From: Anaerolineae bacterium
Lineage (GTDB): Bacteria; Chloroflexota; Anaerolineae; Anaerolineales; Villigracilaceae
DNA length: 37,608 nucleotides
NCBI GenBank assembly: GCA_003141915.1
Contig: PLNY01000361.1
Span: forward strand, 4,765 to 42,372
Direction of reading: 5' to 3'
The notes below the pieces were generated by a model that saw only the letters and a program-made list of their open reading frames with translations, was not told where the DNA came from and made no database searches. Shown one piece after another: positions 760-37,191 of this stretch; the stretch's first letter is position 1, and every line of letters starts with the position of its first letter. The translations under genes and the position numbers were made by a program.

Positions 760-795
760 AAAATCTCCCGCAACATTGCGGGAGATTTTCTTTTC
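760..795. terminator. Hairpin terminator between convergent genes (possibly bidirectional)
   Basis: AAAATCTCCCGC-aacatt-GCGGGAGATTTT is a perfect 12-bp stem. It is followed by CTTTTC on the + strand and preceded by an A-run that serves the - strand. Confidence 0.6.
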
Positions 796-1726
796 AATCT
801 GCAAATTTCGGCATCACGTCCGAGGCGAGAAGCTGGAGGCTTTCGGCTTCGTTCTTGTAACTGCTCACGATCAGCAATTGCGTTCCGGCGTCTTGATATT
901 GACCGAATAGATCAACGGCTTGAGAAACGGTCAAGGCATAGCCGCGGAACGGCTCAGGCAATTGCATGCGCTGTTTCTTGGCTTGAAGTTCGGATTCGTT
1001 CTTCGCCACCAGCAACGCGGTCAGATTCGTTCGTTGAATCGAATTGTAATCGCGTCCCGCCTCCTCGCAATGCTTTCGCAGGATGGCATATTTTTTCCTG
1101 ACCATTTCCGGATCGCCGAATACATTGCAGGCATCGCCCCAACGCGCCACGGCACGCAGCGTTAATTGTTCGCCGCTGCCGCCGATCAGAATGGGCGGAT
1201 GCGGTTTCTGGACCGGCTTCGGTTCGAGCATGGCTTCTTTGATGTGGAAATATTTCCCGTCGAAGGTTGCGCGCGGCTCGCTCCACATCTTCAGGATGAG
1301 TTGAATCGCTTCTTCCATCTGCTTGATGCGGACGGCGGGCTTTTCGGGAAACATCCACCCATATTGGATATATTCCTGAACATTCCAGCCTGCGCCGATG
1401 CCCAGCGTGAGTCGTCCGCGGCTGATGATGTCGACTCCGGCCGCGATCTTTGCCAGATGCGCCGGGTTGCGATATCCAACCGAGGTGACCAACAGCGAGA
1501 GCCGCGTCTTCGTCGTGACTGCCGCCAGCGCCGCCAGCGTGGACCAGCCTTCCATGAACGGTTCATCCGCCACGCCCACGCCGGGGATTTGGATCAAATG
1601 GTCCATCAACGAAAACCAGGTGAAGCCGTGCGTCTCCGCCCATTGCGCCTTGCGCTTGACTTCCTCGAAGATTTCGTATTGATCCGAACCGAACAGCCAG
1701 GAGGGATTATGGATTCCAAATTTCAT
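794..1726 (-). CDS. LLM-class (luciferase-like) F420/flavin-dependent oxidoreductase
   Basis: 310 aa. N-terminal MKFGI..., then GFTWFSLMDH, and GRLTLGIGAGW is typical of the luciferase-like monooxygenase fold. A GAGGAG RBS lies upstream of the ATG. Confidence 0.75.
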   Translation of the reverse strand: MKFGIHNPSWLFGSDQYEIFEEVKRKAQWAETHGFTWFSLMDHLIQIPGVGVADEPFMEGWSTLAALAAVTTKTRLSLLVTSVGYRNPAHLAKIAAGVDIISRGRLTLGIGAGWNVQEYIQYGWMFPEKPAVRIKQMEEAIQLILKMWSEPRATFDGKYFHIKEAMLEPKPVQKPHPPILIGGSGEQLTLRAVARWGDACNVFGDPEMVRKKYAILRKHCEEAGRDYNSIQRTNLTALLVAKNESELQAKKQRMQLPEPFRGYALTVSQAVDLFGQYQDAGTQLLIVSSYKNEAESLQLLASDVMPKFAD

Positions 1727-1946: not shown

Positions 1947-2300
1947 GGCAGGTGGGGGAACTAAATTCCCCTGCTTACTGACTAAATTGGCAGGCGGGGG
2001 AACTAAATTCCCCAGCTTACCAACTAAACCGGCAGGCGGGGGAACCAAATCCCCCAGCTTACTGACTAAATCGGCAGGCGGGGGAACTAAAGCCCCCTGC
2101 TTACTGACTAAATTGGCAGGCGGGGGAACTAAATTCCCCAGCTTACCAACTAAACCGGCAGGTAGGGGAACTAAATCCCCCTGCTTACCAACTAAACCGG
2201 CGGTCGGGGAACTAAATCAGTGGGCTGGGGAACTAAATCCCCCACAGAGGAACTAAGTCAGCAGGCGGGGGAACTAAATCGGTAAGGCTACCAACAAAAC
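1947..2300. repeat. Tandem array of 42-bp units (about 6 clean and 2-3 degenerate), each with a G-run/C-run hairpin; the [A/G]ACTAAA word is phased at 20-21 bp
   Basis: Unit starts at 1947, 1989, 2031, 2073, 2115, 2157 and 2199 give an exact 42-bp period. The consensus is GGCAGGCGGGGGAACTAAATTCCCCAGCTTACCAACTAAACC. The array degenerates towards 2300. Confidence 0.9.
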
Positions 2301-4674: not shown

Positions 4675-5508
4675 ATGTTAATCGTAACCAGGCTCGACGA
4701 ATTGCGCTCCGCCCGCTCCCTTCTGGACGGGAAGCTGGGTCTCGTACCGACGATGGGTTATCTCCACGAAGGGCATATTTCTCTTGTCCGCCGCGCCAAG
4801 GCTGAATGCGACTATGTTGCCGTGAGCATCTTCGTCAACCCGACTCAATTTGGACCCAACGAGGACCTCGCCAAGTATCCACGTGATTTGGACCGCGATC
4901 TGCATCTGCTCGAAGACGCAGGCGTGGACTTGGTCTGGACACCAACGCCCGAGGTGATGTATCCGTCCGGGTTTCAAACCTGGGTCGAAGTCGAGGAAAT
5001 GACGCGCCCGCTGGAAGGTGCTCAACGCCCCGGCCATTTTCGCGGCGTAACGACGGTTGTCACGAAACTGTTCAATGCGGTTCAACCAACGAAAGCTTAC
5101 TTTGGTCAAAAGGATGCGCAGCAAGCCGCGGTCATTCGGCGAATGACGGAGGATTTGAATTTCCCCATCGAGATCGTGGTTTGCCCAATCGTGCGTGAGC
5201 CGGACGGACTAGCCATGTCCAGCCGCAATATTTATCTTGATGCCCATCAACGCAAAGCCGCGACGGTTCTATATCGTTCGTTGAGCGCGGCGAAGGAAGA
5301 ATATGAAAAGGGCGAGCGCGATGCGGAAAAGTTGAGACGAAAAATGAAAGAAGTGATTGCGTCCGAGCCGCTGGCGCAAATGCAATATGTTTCCTGCGCG
5401 GATTACGATACGTTACAGGAGTTGGAGAAAGTTACGGGGAAGACTCTGCTTTCGATGGCGGTGTTCTTTGGGAAAACAAGGTTGATTGATAACTTTGTGT
5501 TGGAGTGA
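4675..5508 (+). CDS. panC: Pantoate--beta-alanine ligase (pantothenate synthetase)
   Basis: 277 aa. LVPTMGYLHEGHISLV (HIGH-type motif), FGQKD and SSRN motifs are collinear with PanC. Confidence 0.95.
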   Translation: MLIVTRLDELRSARSLLDGKLGLVPTMGYLHEGHISLVRRAKAECDYVAVSIFVNPTQFGPNEDLAKYPRDLDRDLHLLEDAGVDLVWTPTPEVMYPSGFQTWVEVEEMTRPLEGAQRPGHFRGVTTVVTKLFNAVQPTKAYFGQKDAQQAAVIRRMTEDLNFPIEIVVCPIVREPDGLAMSSRNIYLDAHQRKAATVLYRSLSAAKEEYEKGERDAEKLRRKMKEVIASEPLAQMQYVSCADYDTLQELEKVTGKTLLSMAVFFGKTRLIDNFVLE

Positions 5509-5783: not shown

Positions 5784-6047
5784 CTATACTTGTTCAAACC
5801 GTTCCACCGGAACGACAAACAACGATCCGTGTTTCTCGACAGGCGCACTCATTGCAATGGTTTCGCGAATGAGTTTGATCGCCGAATCAACTTGTGCGTC
5901 ACTCACACCGAGCAGTAAAGTCACCACGCCGCTTCGCAGAAATCCGCCCGTCGAGGCGATGCGCGTGACGCGGTATTCTTCACTGGTCAGGGCACGCGTA
6001 AGCGCGTCGGCTTCGTTATCTTTGATAATCACAATGATCATTTTCAT
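5784..6047 (-). CDS. DarA/PstA (YaaQ, DUF970) family PII-like protein, short paralog (87 aa)
   Basis: MKMIIVIIKDNEADALTRALTSEEYRVTRIASTGGFLRSGVVTLLLGV...FVVPVERFEQV matches the cyclic-di-AMP receptor family pattern (TKLATTGGFL..GNTT...VLPV..F). An AGGAGG RBS precedes the ATG at 6047. The longer ORF to 6170 runs through the palindromic element. Confidence 0.75.
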   Translation of the reverse strand: MKMIIVIIKDNEADALTRALTSEEYRVTRIASTGGFLRSGVVTLLLGVSDAQVDSAIKLIRETIAMSAPVEKHGSLFVVPVERFEQV

Positions 6048-6188: not shown

Positions 6189-6524
6189 TTATATCTCCTC
6201 GAATCTTTCCACCGGCAGTGCAAATACGGTTGCGCCGCCGACCGTCACCGGAATCGGTGTGGGCATTGGCAATGGCGAACCCTCCAATGGCATGGATAAA
6301 TATTCGACGCGCTGACGACAAGATTTTCGCAATTCGCGCAATACATCTTCCTCCCGGCCTTTGGGCAGGCCGATCAAGATCGTTGCGTTGCGCCGACCGA
6401 GAAATCCGCCCGCGCTTGCCAGATACACAACCGGCGCACCGAAAGAACTAACCGCGCGCGTGGCGACATCTAAATCCTGTTCCTGCACAATCGCCAGAAT
6501 CAAAAGATGCATTGGATTGTCCAT
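6189..6524 (-). CDS. DarA/PstA (YaaQ, DUF970) family PII-like protein, full-length paralog (111 aa)
   Basis: LLILAIVQEQD...LASAGGFLGRRNATILIGL...VTVGGATVFALPVERFEEI closely parallels the B. subtilis DarA pattern (...VEVGGATVFVLPVDEFHQF). A GAGGAG RBS is present. Confidence 0.8.
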   Translation of the reverse strand: MDNPMHLLILAIVQEQDLDVATRAVSSFGAPVVYLASAGGFLGRRNATILIGLPKGREEDVLRELRKSCRQRVEYLSMPLEGSPLPMPTPIPVTVGGATVFALPVERFEEI

Positions 6525-17491: not shown

Positions 17492-18310
17492 ATGCCTTCC
17501 AAATTTCCTTCCAAAAAACCAGAGGGACAACTGACGCGCGGCAAGACGGCATCGAATCGACTCCGCCGCGTGGACAATTTCATTTTGCTTTATGAACCGT
17601 CGCTTCTCACGCGGACCGATAACGGATTCAGTGATTCTTTATTCGTTGACCTCGGCTATGGCTTCGACGCGCGCACCACACTCGAGTCTGCATTGCGCTT
17701 TCGACGCGTGAATCCATCGCTGAAAATCATCGGCGTTGAAATTGATGCGGAAAGAGTCGCGGCTGCATTACCTTATTCCGATGACAAAACTTTCTTTCGC
17801 CTCGGCGGATTCAATTTGCCGTTGAAGGAAGGCGAAACCGTCCGATTGATCCGGGCTTTCAATGTGCTTCGTCAATACGAAGAAAAGGATTTCATTCCCG
17901 CCTATGAACGACTCGCACAATATGTTCTGCCCGGCGGCTTGATGATCGAAGGCACGTCTGATCCGTTTGGAAGGATTTGGTCGGCGAATATAGCGCGGAG
18001 AATGGATAATGGATCATGGAGGATGGAAGCGTTGGTCTTTAGCACCAACTTCCGTTCGGGGTTCGACGCGGAAGAATTCCAAACGATCCTGCCCAAGAAT
18101 TATATTCATCACGTCTTGCCCGGCGAAACGATCTATGATTTTTTCACAGCATGGAAACGCGCCGCGGCAGAGACCACTTCCGTCAAAGTCTATGGACTGC
18201 GACCATGGTTTGAAGCATCTGCTCAGGCCTTGGCGCGCAATGGATATTCGATCAACTTGCAAAAAAGATTCTTGAACAGGGGCTGGTTGATTTGGTATTT
18301 GGGAAAATAA
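17492..18310 (+). CDS. Class I SAM-dependent methyltransferase-like protein
   Basis: 272 aa. VDLGYGFDARTT (motif I-like), KIIGVEID (motif II-like) and IRAFNVLRQY. I do not recognise the specific subfamily. Confidence 0.55.
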   Translation: MPSKFPSKKPEGQLTRGKTASNRLRRVDNFILLYEPSLLTRTDNGFSDSLFVDLGYGFDARTTLESALRFRRVNPSLKIIGVEIDAERVAAALPYSDDKTFFRLGGFNLPLKEGETVRLIRAFNVLRQYEEKDFIPAYERLAQYVLPGGLMIEGTSDPFGRIWSANIARRMDNGSWRMEALVFSTNFRSGFDAEEFQTILPKNYIHHVLPGETIYDFFTAWKRAAAETTSVKVYGLRPWFEASAQALARNGYSINLQKRFLNRGWLIWYLGK

Positions 18311-23491: not shown

Positions 23492-23690
23492 GTCAAGGGA
23501 AGGCTCAGCGAGTTCAAGGAAACACGGAGTGAGTGCAAGGAAGCGCAGAGCAACTGCAAGGAAGCGCAGAGTAAGTGCAAGGAAGCGCGGAGCAAGTGCA
23601 AGGAAACGCAGAGTAAGTGCAAGGAAGCGTAGAGCAACTGCAAGGAAGTCCGGAGTAAGTCTAAGGAAGAGCGGAGCAAGTGCAAGGGAT
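23492..23690. repeat. Tandem 21-bp repeat array (~9.5 units, consensus TGCAAGGAAGCGCAGAGTAAG)
   Basis: Units start at 23492, 23513, 23534, 23555, 23576, 23597, 23618, 23639, 23660 and 23681. The central units are 85-100% identical by eye. Confidence 0.9.
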
Positions 23691-33305: not shown

Positions 33306-33589
33306 ATTTCAGGAAGCAATAATTTCGTCAACCTTACTTGAATTGATATTTAAGTGGATTTGAATAATTCCTTGGAAGCATTAATAAGATGCTGCCTGCC
33401 CATCGCATTCCGCCTTCATATAAGCATCGTAATCTTGTAAGTAAAAGTTTGCCAAGATTCTGGAGCAATCTCCGAGCGCCAGAAGCAGGGTAGTAAGGAA
33501 GAAATCAGGAAGATGGTTCGGGAGTTGGAGCAGGCGGGTCTGGAAATTCCACATCCCATAGGTTCATCATCCACACTTCCTCGCTATGT

Positions 33590-33630
33590 CTATATGGTGT
33601 CTATATGGTGGCTATATGGTACCTATATCC
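33590..33630. repeat. Four CTATAT(GGT) words phased at exactly 11 bp, bracketed by CCTCGCT direct repeats
   Basis: CTATATGGT occurs at 33590, 33601 and 33612, and CTATATCC at 33623. CCTCGCT occurs at 33579-33585 and 33629-33635. The block lies in a 570-bp stretch with no credible ORF. Confidence 0.8.
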
Positions 33631-33878
33631 TCGCTTCATTCGTCCTTCGTTCATCCTAAGCACTTCATAAGCACATGGTAAGTGCCTAACCTGGCTCTCG
33701 GCTGCAGGAGAGGCTTGTTCGCAACGGACAAACGTTTCGAGCGAAGGTCACGCTCAGCGAAGCAAGCCAGAATTATATAAAACATAATAAGGCGGAGTGA
33801 TAAAGATTTTCTGGGTTTTCAGATAAATAGGCTAGATGATAATCCAGCAGATGCAAGTCCTGATACAATGGGAGAACC

Positions 33879-34865: not shown

Positions 34866-36302
34866 ATGCTGGAAAATCTTGAGTCGATCCTCCGCGAACA
34901 ATGCAACCTCGATAAATCGAGGCCGGTCATTGTCGGCGTATCAGGCGGCCCTGACAGCTTGTGCCTGATGGAGATCCTCCGGCGATCTGGTTATCATATC
35001 ATTGTCGCGCATTTCAACCACAAACTGCGCGACGCGGCTGATTCAGAAGCCACTGCGGTCGAGCATACCTCAGCCCGATTAATGATCCCGTCCGTGGTGG
35101 GAAGCGCGGATGTGAGCATTTACGCGGAAGCCAACAGCTTATCGCTCGAGGAAGCCGCGCGAAATCTGCGGTATCGTTTTCTGTTTACACAGGCGCATCG
35201 GCTGAACGCGCAAGCGGTGGCTGTGGGACATACCGCAGACGATCAGGTGGAAACGATATTGATGCATTTGATTCGCGGCACGGGCTTGACGGGACTCAAG
35301 GGCATGTCGTATCGCACGATCCTTCCAACATTCGATCCGGATATTCCCATTGTCCGGCCTCTGCTGGATACCTGGCGCGAAGAAACCGTCGCCTATTGCG
35401 CCGCCAACGGCCTTCGGCCCCATTATGATCCAAGCAACGATTTGCTCAACTTCCTCCGCAACCGTTTGCGCAACATTCTGATTCCCATGCTCGAAACATA
35501 CAATCCGAAATTCCGTGAAGCAGTTTGGCGCACCGCCCAATCGCTAAGCGCCGATCATGCAATACTCAACGAGGCCCTCAACGCAAACTGGAATAAGAGC
35601 CTGATTTTGCAGGATGAGGAATATGTGATTCTCGACTTGTCTTTCCTTTCCTCATGTTCAGTGGGATTACAACGCCACATCATTCGCCGCGCGGTGGAAA
35701 GCATTGCGCCCGGACAAGAAATGGTCTTCTCGGTTCTAAAGCGCGTATCCGACTTTATAGCCGATTCCACGCGCATTCGAGTTGATTTGACGAAAGGCCT
35801 GACTTTGTTCCGCGAAGGCGATGTGCTGTACGTCGCCAAGCCGAATGCGCAACTGCCGTTTGACCGCTGGCCGCAAATGCCCTCTCAACAAGATTTCATC
35901 AACGTGTCTGTGCCGGGACAAATTGATCTTTCCGGCGGCTGGAAATTTTCAGCGGAGAAGTGGCGGCTCCCCGCGCTGGCGTGGGAACAATCTTCCCGGA
36001 ACGAAGATCCGTTTCAGGTCTGGTTGGACGCGGAAGGTTTGCCTGATCCATTGGAACTGCGCGTCCGGCGCGAGGGCGATATCTTCGAGCCGCTGGGCAT
36101 GAAAGGCCACTCGCAAAAATTATCCGACTTTTTTACAAATGAAAAATTAGCCGTCCGCGCCAGGCCGCGCTGGCCGTTGCTATGCGCGGCGGAGCGAATT
36201 GTTTGGGTGCCGGGATTTCGCCCGGCAGAATCATTTAAATTGAAACAATCGTCCCGAAAGGTAATTTACTTTTCGATGATCCGCCCGCGCGAAGTCACTT
36301 AG
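34866..36302 (+). CDS. tilS: tRNA(Ile)-lysidine synthetase
   Basis: 478 aa. The PP-loop is VGVSGGPDSLCL, followed by HFNHKLR and GHTADDQVET motifs and a C-terminal TilS substrate-binding domain. Confidence 0.92.
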   Translation: MLENLESILREQCNLDKSRPVIVGVSGGPDSLCLMEILRRSGYHIIVAHFNHKLRDAADSEATAVEHTSARLMIPSVVGSADVSIYAEANSLSLEEAARNLRYRFLFTQAHRLNAQAVAVGHTADDQVETILMHLIRGTGLTGLKGMSYRTILPTFDPDIPIVRPLLDTWREETVAYCAANGLRPHYDPSNDLLNFLRNRLRNILIPMLETYNPKFREAVWRTAQSLSADHAILNEALNANWNKSLILQDEEYVILDLSFLSSCSVGLQRHIIRRAVESIAPGQEMVFSVLKRVSDFIADSTRIRVDLTKGLTLFREGDVLYVAKPNAQLPFDRWPQMPSQQDFINVSVPGQIDLSGGWKFSAEKWRLPALAWEQSSRNEDPFQVWLDAEGLPDPLELRVRREGDIFEPLGMKGHSQKLSDFFTNEKLAVRARPRWPLLCAAERIVWVPGFRPAESFKLKQSSRKVIYFSMIRPREVT

Positions 36303-37191
36303 TTTGTTCGCTTAATTGTCTTAGCTTCATCCCAATTTCCCGCCATTGGATTTTTGAAATTCCCAATTTTATACGAATCTGTTCCGCCTCGAGGCCGGAG
36401 CGAAAATCGCGTAACGCGCACGTCCAGCGGCACATGTCGAACGACAAGTGTTTGCCAAGCCCCGCTTCCATTCCTATATCTTCCAGCACATACTCGAGAT
36501 TGCGCGGCGACCAGGGAAAGAGCTGATCCGCCGGCTGATATTGCGCAATGTATTCCCGATAAGGCAGAAGCCAATCTTCCGTCAGAAGAAGTTTGCGTTC
36601 CTTGTATCGGTTGGCGGGGCTGGGATAACGGATAAAGACTTGCGGACCGTTCGGCGCATTGAGGTCAATATGGTTAAGGCGGATTCCGAGACACTCGCTC
36701 TTTTTTATTCCAGTAATGAGCAGAAGATGAATCAACGCAAACGGACGCGCATCCGGATTTTCCGCGCGGCGATGACGGTCGGCTGCGACCAGAACTTCAT
36801 TCACTTCCTCTTCGGTCAGCACCTGCGGAAGCGGGCTGATGACCGAATGCTGCACCACCTTTTCAGCCGGATCAACGACCAGGACTCCGTATTGCGTCAG
36901 CCACCGGTAAAACGATTTGACGGCAGTAATGCGGCGCGCCAATGTCTTTGGACTGCAGGGGACATCACGCTCTTTTTCCATCCATTCAAAGAATCGATTC
37001 AGATCATTAGTCGTAACCGCGCCGATGGATTTATCGGGCGGAAAGAATTTGGTCAGCAGGCGCACATCTGATGTGAAGGCCTTGACCGTGTAGGGCGAGC
37101 TTCCCTTATCGTAAAGATACGATTCCCAAGCCTTGATGGCTGGATTCAGAAGCGTGCCTGATGTTACATGAGCGGAATCTTTTGATGGCAT
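36295..37191 (-). CDS. Xer-like tyrosine recombinase homolog with degenerate catalytic residues
   Basis: 298 aa. The N-terminal SAM-like core-binding domain reads AWESYLYDKGSSPYTVKAFTSDVRLL...AVKSFYRWL. In the C-terminal fold, ITGIKKSE replaces ATGLRxSE, SFDMCRW replaces HxLRH, and LGISKIQWREIG replaces LGH...TxxYT. The 3' end overlaps tilS by 8 bp (convergent). Confidence 0.7.
   Translation of the reverse strand: MPSKDSAHVTSGTLLNPAIKAWESYLYDKGSSPYTVKAFTSDVRLLTKFFPPDKSIGAVTTNDLNRFFEWMEKERDVPCSPKTLARRITAVKSFYRWLTQYGVLVVDPAEKVVQHSVISPLPQVLTEEEVNEVLVAADRHRRAENPDARPFALIHLLLITGIKKSECLGIRLNHIDLNAPNGPQVFIRYPSPANRYKERKLLLTEDWLLPYREYIAQYQPADQLFPWSPRNLEYVLEDIGMEAGLGKHLSFDMCRWTCALRDFRSGLEAEQIRIKLGISKIQWREIGMKLRQLSEQTK

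Follow-up and report, generated by a model that had tools for sequence, protein, structure and literature searches.

A quasi-palindromic 42-bp tandem array at a synteny breakpoint in an uncultured Anaerolineales bacterium, a likely lineage-specific minisatellite

Introduction

Tandem repeats with units of tens of base pairs have been described in bacteria both as arrays of no demonstrated function and as binding sites of dedicated proteins. VNTRs, or minisatellites, are intergenic, are built of head-to-tail units and change in copy number by whole units, with no function demonstrated in the accounts cited here (PMC3635867, PMC6749651). The mycobacterial MIRU loci are presented as bacterial VNTRs in the first of these accounts; in the second, the reference-genome survey of Subirana and Messeguer, the one Chloroflexi genome included, that of Chloroflexus aurantiacus, heads the bacterial table of satellites per Mb. 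The F-plasmid site sopC, as one account gives it, has 12 repeats, 43 bp in length, and in each of them SopB binds an inverted repeat of 16 bp (PMC3177203). In the REP and BIME elements of enterobacteria and pseudomonads, as far as the cited descriptions go, palindromic arms alternate at regular spacing, with short linkers, in intergenic DNA (PMC2817692, PMC3333891). The iterons of plasmids and phages, finally, are direct repeats of about 21 bp in helical phase.

Here we describe an array with features of each of these classes, found in a 37,608-nt stretch of DNA (the window) from an uncultured Anaerolineales (Chloroflexota) bacterium. A first-pass annotation, made from the letters alone, had reported six exact 42-bp units followed by decaying ones, hairpins whose arms differ yet stay complementary, some 17 phased copies of the word [A/G]ACTAAA and only one open frame; it judged the array to be neither CRISPR nor convincingly coding and favored a phased protein-binding array of the kind seen in partition centromeres, iterons or nucleoid-protein sites. 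The array and its periods are upheld by our analysis, as is the rejection of CRISPR and of convincing coding, while the complementarity of the arms, the sole open frame and the protein-binding interpretation are not. We give a probability of roughly 0.6 to the reading that the array is a lineage-specific, intergenic, quasi-palindromic minisatellite (VNTR) that grows and shrinks by slippage or unequal recombination.

With the VNTRs of the cited accounts the array shares its intergenic head-to-tail units of tens of base pairs, their change in number by whole units and the lack of a demonstrated function, but each of its units is an extended imperfect palindrome, in which two 21-bp modules stand inverted to one another while a word common to both keeps one direction, and it occupies a single locus, whereas MIRUs are described as an interspersed family. 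It recalls sopC, as described, in having tandem, direct units of nearly the same length (42 versus 43 bp) with an inverted repeat in each; however, it is chromosomal, lacks sopA/sopB or parA/parB, has an inverted repeat that spans nearly the whole unit, and does not conserve a binding motif in the manner of sopC and parS, since relatives differ in both the sequence and the number of units. Alternating palindromic arms, regular spacing, short linkers and an intergenic position are likewise shared with the REP and BIME elements portrayed in the cited work, yet the array is found at one locus and not at hundreds, has no RAYT gene and has grown by local tandem duplication. Its direct repeats of about 21 bp in helical phase are iteron-like, but no adjacent rep gene or origin features accompany them and the repeat is poorly conserved. 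With neither partner genes nor dispersal, the array thus fails a defining feature of sopC and of BIMEs.

Results

Tandem Repeats Finder (TRF), run on the window, reports a repeat at 1947-2218 with a period of 42 bp, 6.5 copies, 87% matches and no indels, together with a higher-order period of 126 bp (91%), and so establishes the head-to-tail tandem arrangement that characterizes VNTRs and minisatellites. The unit starts (1947, 1989, 2031, 2073, 2115 and 2157) agree with those of the first-pass annotation, and the six clean units at 1947-2198 are supported alike by TRF, exact segmentation, per-unit folds and pair counts. The tract as a whole, 1947-2301, splits exactly into 17 half-units of 20-21 nt each. 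The last five of these (2199-2301, two of them only 20 nt long) form a decayed tail common to the related loci L208 and L128, and its final module, GGTAAGGCTACCAACAAAACT, is of the ancestral type.

Each clean unit joins a G-type half (GGCAGGCGGGGGAACTAAATY) to a C-type half (CCCCWGCTTACYRACTAAAYY). The arms, 15-16 nt long, are reverse complementary from one half to the other, and ACTAAA runs in the same direction in both, so the unit is a 37-nt imperfect hairpin followed by a 5-nt CTAAA linker, with one copy of ACTAAA in the hairpin loop and the other in the linker. The G-run/C-run hairpin that had been noted in the units is genuine (seven plus-strand sites and ten matches on both strands, against 0.2 expected), and this core sits within the longer 37-nt imperfect palindrome, of whose 16 positions 78% are paired. 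Fold energies per unit, computed with RNA parameters, range from -13 to -19 kcal/mol in this species; an example is the plus-strand hairpin at 1987-2023, TTGG-C-AGGC-G-GGGGAA / CTAAA / TTCCCC-A-GCTT-A-CCAA, at -17.9 kcal/mol.

The word [A/G]ACTAAA occurs 14 times in exact form on the plus strand of the array, from 1959 to 2278 in steps of 20-21 bp, and three times elsewhere in the 37.6-kb window, whose total of 17 compares with 5.7 +/- 2.6 expected. The variant words AACCAAA, AACTAAG and AACAAAA raise the phased series from 14 to 17, so the reported number of phased words, far above chance, is reproduced.

The window holds further tandem repeats. A second intergenic array at 23511-23687, between a MerR-family gene and tRNA-Gly(tcc), has a period of 21 bp (also 42 and 63) and 8.4 copies of AGTGCAAGGAAGCGCAGAGTA at 80%; its sequence is unrelated to that of the first array, and its plus frame reads as CKEAQSK heptads interrupted by TAG. 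Shorter intergenic repeats are 11-bp units at 33587-33676 and GGAGAAT x4.4 at 17997-18027. Repeats with a period of 7 or 21 bp also lie just upstream of panC in several Anaerolineales MAGs (L142 7923-7981, L147 7886-7923, L152 7866-7911). This genome may be prone to satellites with a 21-bp period.

Related loci were found along two routes. Synteny around panC led to a sister species (L128, PanC 93% identical), which has one 42-bp unit at 4740-4781, 90% identical to window positions 2140-2181, preceded by degenerate 21-bp modules, about nine in number, which escape TRF. A search with the minus-strand repeat peptide led to L208, with 3.9 units, and to L209, where two units are followed by ancestral modules like those of L128. 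Exact 21-bp spacing spans 230-355 bp in the four lineages. Within the species, an exact look-up of SSB yielded ten contigs (98.7-99.9% identity), and the locus is present in seven independent conspecific assemblies. In five of these (99.8-99.9% identity) the array is identical to that of the window and is therefore not an assembly artefact; since these assemblies come from different samples, neither is it hypervariable on short time scales. In L215 the array is 168 nt, exactly four units, shorter, the left part of unit 1 being fused to the right part of unit 5 so that two units remain, and L211 (98.7%) has six reshuffled units. Clean units thus differ in number by whole units: one in L128, about two in L209, 3.9 in L208, 6.5 in the window and the five assemblies, and two in L215. 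These copy numbers come mostly from short-read assemblies, which are poor at repeat arrays of 250 bp, and three contigs, two of them among the ten from the SSB look-up, are broken inside the array; the variants of L211 and L215 may therefore owe something to assembly, while the agreement of five assemblies supports the count in the window. Length variation among close relatives, which the first-pass annotation had itself counted against its preferred interpretation, is thus what we observe (1, ~2, ~4 and 6.5 copies, and 2 versus 6 within the species).

That annotation had also proposed looking for the unit at other loci, and in everything searched it has only one. A stricter unit pattern gave no match in 185,579 GTDB species-representative genomes and matched one metagenome contig, from the same organism; blastn against phage and plasmid collections found nothing, and no further copies occur in the rest of the window or in the other conspecific and related loci fetched. 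A more general phased-word probe, AACTAAA-N14-RACTAAA-N14-AACTAAA, was useless, returning more than 119 unrelated AT-rich or giant-virus matches in viral contigs.

The claim that the arms differ between units and yet stay complementary is contradicted by the sequence. Units 1-5 share the 5' arm GGGGGAA and the 3' side alone varies; its variants TTCCCC, TCCCCC and GCCCCC merely slip the pairing register, and the arm of unit 6, given as TCCCCT, is actually TCCCCCT. Formal pair counts show zero covariation signal. Across 17 distinct hairpin variants (this genome plus two strains of its species and two relatives), 77.6% of cells hold paired bases, compared with 30-62% when partners are slid, and the covariation score of 0.107 is set against a shuffle mean of 0.105 and is reached by 181 of 500 shuffles. 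Double changes affect one pair only. An earlier count on the first 12 of these hairpin sequences found no covariation either.

Conservation of the modules is equally slight, with one invariant position (an A) across 53 modules. Exact ACTAAA is found in the G-type and C-type modules of the recent amplification alone; in its place older modules, those of the sister species among them, have ACAAGC, ATGAAC, ACAAAC or ACAAAA. With the word mostly lost in older modules and the amplification recent, the phased words reflect identity by descent, and the 17 of them are inherited copies, not 17 independent observations of constraint. Neither covariation, module conservation nor codon position reveals any constraint on the unit sequence beyond common descent.

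To the left the array is joined to the remains of a gene. A 93-nt plus-strand relic of the 3' part of hypE (1855-1947, HypE residues ~313-342 of 354) matches the HypE of L208 at 90% over 30 aa (tblastn, E 3.5e-10) and L208 3351-3443 at 93.5% nucleotide identity, with a weak match to the PDB HypE 2z1e. A collinear plus-strand scrap of 19 nt at 1835-1853 (codons ...NVGIVL) matches the intact hypE of L208 at 89% by blastn-short, a match that is weak alone (E 0.065). The relic runs straight into the first repeat unit, and a TAA in the loop of the first hairpin (1962-1964) ends its frame. Set beside L208, this species has lost the MFS gene, hicAB and the last 38 nt of hypE, and the junction, GTGGTG/GGCAGGTGGGGG, is common to all seven conspecific assemblies.

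Nearby genes in the window are an F420-dependent LLM oxidoreductase (794-1726, minus strand), small AT-rich membrane ORFs, ssb and panC, and the remainder is ordinary chromosome with rpoC, tilS, tRNA-Gly and metabolic genes. Nearly every ORF of at least 120 aa in the 37.6-kb window was scanned against Pfam, and no ParA/ParB, Rep or Cas genes turned up; L208 and L128 likewise have no parA/parB beside the tract. Unit follows unit with no spacers in between, which, together with the lack of cas genes in the window, bears out the verdict that this is not a CRISPR array.

The window, L128 and L208 agree in their right flank, which holds the tail modules, a 210-nt block, membrane genes of cassette-like character, ssb and panC. 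The left flank varies with the lineage: this genome has the hypE relic and LLM oxidoreductase, L208 and L209 have hicAB and hypEDCF with an MFS gene whose transcription is directed away from the tract, and L128 has an SppA-like gene and a pair of IS elements. On this comparison of gene orders, the tract sits at a synteny breakpoint or rearrangement hot spot. A synteny search from the side of the LLM oxidoreductase found that close relatives carry cmk or nuo genes there, without the tract.

The two insertion sequences of L128 (1582-4457) lie immediately to the left of its 21-bp tract and comprise a 416-aa ORF resembling, by eye, an IS110-type transposase and a split zinc-finger transposase; their position at the tract edge fits the tract as a preferred site of insertion or rearrangement. 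In three relatives found via the LLM oxidoreductase (L126, L127, L123), cmk is directly upstream of the LLM gene or one gene away. The corresponding distance in this genome is 35.4 kb, and the intervening block (1802-37255), which holds rpoC, panC, ssb, tilS and tRNA-Gly, starts about 145 bp left of the array and ends beside a gene for an Xer-like tyrosine recombinase (36295-37191, minus strand). The block is probably a chromosomal rearrangement and not a mobile element.

Always to the right of the tract is a conserved noncoding block of about 210 nt (2302-2511), ~95% identical in the window, L128 and L208, compared with ~88% for flanking genes. Its core is a long imperfect inverted repeat at ~2305-2430, of about 26 pairs with a 63-nt interior, including 12-bp arms at 2323-2334 and 2398-2409. 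The block has no Rfam match and is too conserved for a covariation test. An apparent 69-aa ORF over it (2309-2518) has no homologue in a protein search and is broken in L208 by a 1-nt indel. Its degree of identity would point either to strong constraint or to recent transfer.

The right end of the block is a 47-nt junction repeat (2466-2512), which recurs directly at 2940-2986 (96%); the two copies bracket an AT-rich 77-aa membrane ORF. Homologous junction repeats occur in L128 at 4982-5027, 5052-5100, 5909-5957 and 6300-6333, with an extra 259-aa membrane gene between them, and in L208 a different gene follows the repeat. From this arrangement, the region between the block and ssb looks like a variable gene-cassette region. 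Inspected by eye, the junction repeat does not match the core-site consensus of an integron attC. Exact look-up of the neighboring 77-aa and 264-aa ORFs matched no record.

Discussion

A copy number that runs from 1 to ~6.5 among close relatives makes the array resemble an ordinary bacterial minisatellite. At least four related Anaerolineales lineages have an older, degenerate tract with a 21-bp period. Two neighboring modules whose arms turned mutually complementary form the 42-bp unit of 37-nt imperfect hairpin and CTAAA linker, and this unit has been amplified and contracted in whole-unit steps, to 1, ~2, ~4 or 6.5 copies, with conspecific strains holding two units or six re-patterned ones. 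In this species, a deletion of MFS, hicAB and the last 38 nt of hypE has joined the hypE relic to the first unit. The changes in copy number are presumably due to slipped-strand mispairing or unequal recombination, hairpin-forming repeats may themselves promote the instability, and the array would have no sequence-specific function in the present genome. Four observations run counter to the minisatellite reading: heavy rearrangement around the tract has not kept it from persisting in at least four lineages, the tract always accompanies the highly conserved 210-nt block, the array is identical in five conspecific assemblies from different samples and so not hypervariable over short times, and its two-turn phasing and palindromic modules are the expected look of a binding array.

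The last of these is the basis of the interpretation that the first-pass annotation had preferred. The tract would be a cis-acting DNA array in which a dimeric DNA-binding protein, whether a regulator, a nucleoid protein or a centromere binder, recognizes a 12-bp palindrome or the RAC-A word at sites that recur on one DNA face every two helical turns. The 21-bp spacing, kept exactly through 230-355 bp in four lineages, is what such a protein would call for, the form is like that of sopC as described (12 x 43 bp with 16-bp inverted repeats bound by SopB; PMC3177203), and the divergent MFS gene of L208 and L209 has the tract some 170 bp upstream. The ancestral module, approximately a 12-bp quasi-palindrome (GGWAAGCTTWCC) plus RACWAAAYC, also has a palindromic consensus, with 3.6 of 6 positions paired and three perfect 12-mers, but this palindromy is no more than column composition predicts (shuffle P = 0.07). 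The three perfect, differing 12-bp palindromes of L128 were considered as compensatory evolution and rejected, as the modules of L209, once added, bring in all four base combinations (P = 0.07). The modules moreover diverge freely, with one of 21 bases invariant; the hairpin core occurs once in L128, and older modules differ at 20 of 21 positions. The phase is broken by 20-nt modules, copy number spans 1-6.5, and the candidate target, the MFS gene, is deleted in the very species with the largest array. For a centromere or iterons in particular, the locus lies on the chromosome, close to rpoC, panC and ssb, and no parA/parB, rep or adjacent regulator gene accompanies the tract; phasing comes with the recent amplification of one two-module unit whose word degenerates in the sister species, and the arms do not covary. 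We consider a binding array unlikely.

Also improbable is a transcript of tandem RNA hairpins, which might act as a 3'-UTR barrier or stabilizer downstream of the minus-strand cassette genes, or as a sponge RNA whose loops and linkers expose CUAAA in turn (UUUAG if read from the opposite strand). The array is downstream of co-directional minus-strand genes and adjoins the highly conserved structured block, every unit forms a hairpin of 14-16 pairs whose loop and linker carry the same word, and the whole array folds better than shuffled sequences (z -4.9 on the plus strand, -7.6 on the minus strand). Compensatory covariation, however, is absent from the 17 variants, and wobble pairs are split evenly between the strands, so neither is favored. 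No Rfam family matches at gathering score, the overlapping sub-threshold chance matches being to eukaryotic miRNA families only, and the array has no convincing promoter or terminator framing. In the unit of L209 two of three arm changes improve pairing, as selection on an RNA would predict, but template-switch correction at quasipalindromes, described as a known mutational mechanism, can yield such changes without selection (PMC7202029).

A further reading treats the ancestral quasi-palindromic 21-bp tract and the 210-nt block (2302-2511) as parts of a single functional cis element, which would border the variable cassette region. Such an element could serve as a boundary, as a site of recombination, or as a transcript that titrates a protein through its repeated loop and linker words. 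Judged from sequence comparison, we rate this proposal as quite unlikely.

A present or recent minus-strand gene for a heptad-repeat protein (x-[L/F/V]-V-G-x-L-x) is very unlikely. The plus-strand frame had been called the only open one through the array, which overlooks a minus-strand frame of LVGKLGN/LVPPPAx heptads that is also open through all clean units; minus frames are open through the repeats in the window, in L208 (P0121, 112 aa) and in L128 (109 aa), and older modules encode Leu by TTA or CTT with the middle T of the codon invariant. There is, however, no conserved start, starts and C-terminal tails differing among lineages; 20-nt modules common to all lineages shift the frame; and a TAG stop lies inside the L209 tract. 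Substitutions between orthologous modules fall 8/6/4 at codon positions 1/2/3, and there is thus no third-position excess. HMMER against 1.84 billion representative proteins returned only two orthologous ORFs and unrelated low-complexity repeat proteins, no Pfam family matched, and when both repeat peptides were run by tblastn against 80 panC-linked loci from more distant relatives, the orthologous tracts alone came up, with no intact gene. The earlier judgment that the array is not convincingly coding is thereby strengthened.

A REP/BIME-type cluster spread by a RAYT transposase is extremely unlikely: the arms do alternate in orientation at regular spacing, as BIMEs are described to do, and an IS element is inserted at the tract edge in L128, but REPs are given as exceeding 100 copies per genome (PMC2817692), against a single locus in all sequence searched, and the window holds no Y1/RAYT transposase gene.

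If the tract and block did form a cis element, this minority reading would indicate a cis element of an uncharacterised kind, linked to a variable cassette region, and copy number would be a tunable parameter in place of neutral drift. Under the favored reading of a quasi-palindromic minisatellite, the locus is first a caution, in that 17 phased words and apparently compensating arms prove to be the signature of recent tandem amplification and not of selection. It also offers a clean natural series of 1, 2, 4 and 6 copies, in which a two-module palindromic unit can be followed from its birth in an older 21-bp tract through its expansion, and it marks a rearrangement hot spot in the chromosomes of uncultured Anaerolineales.
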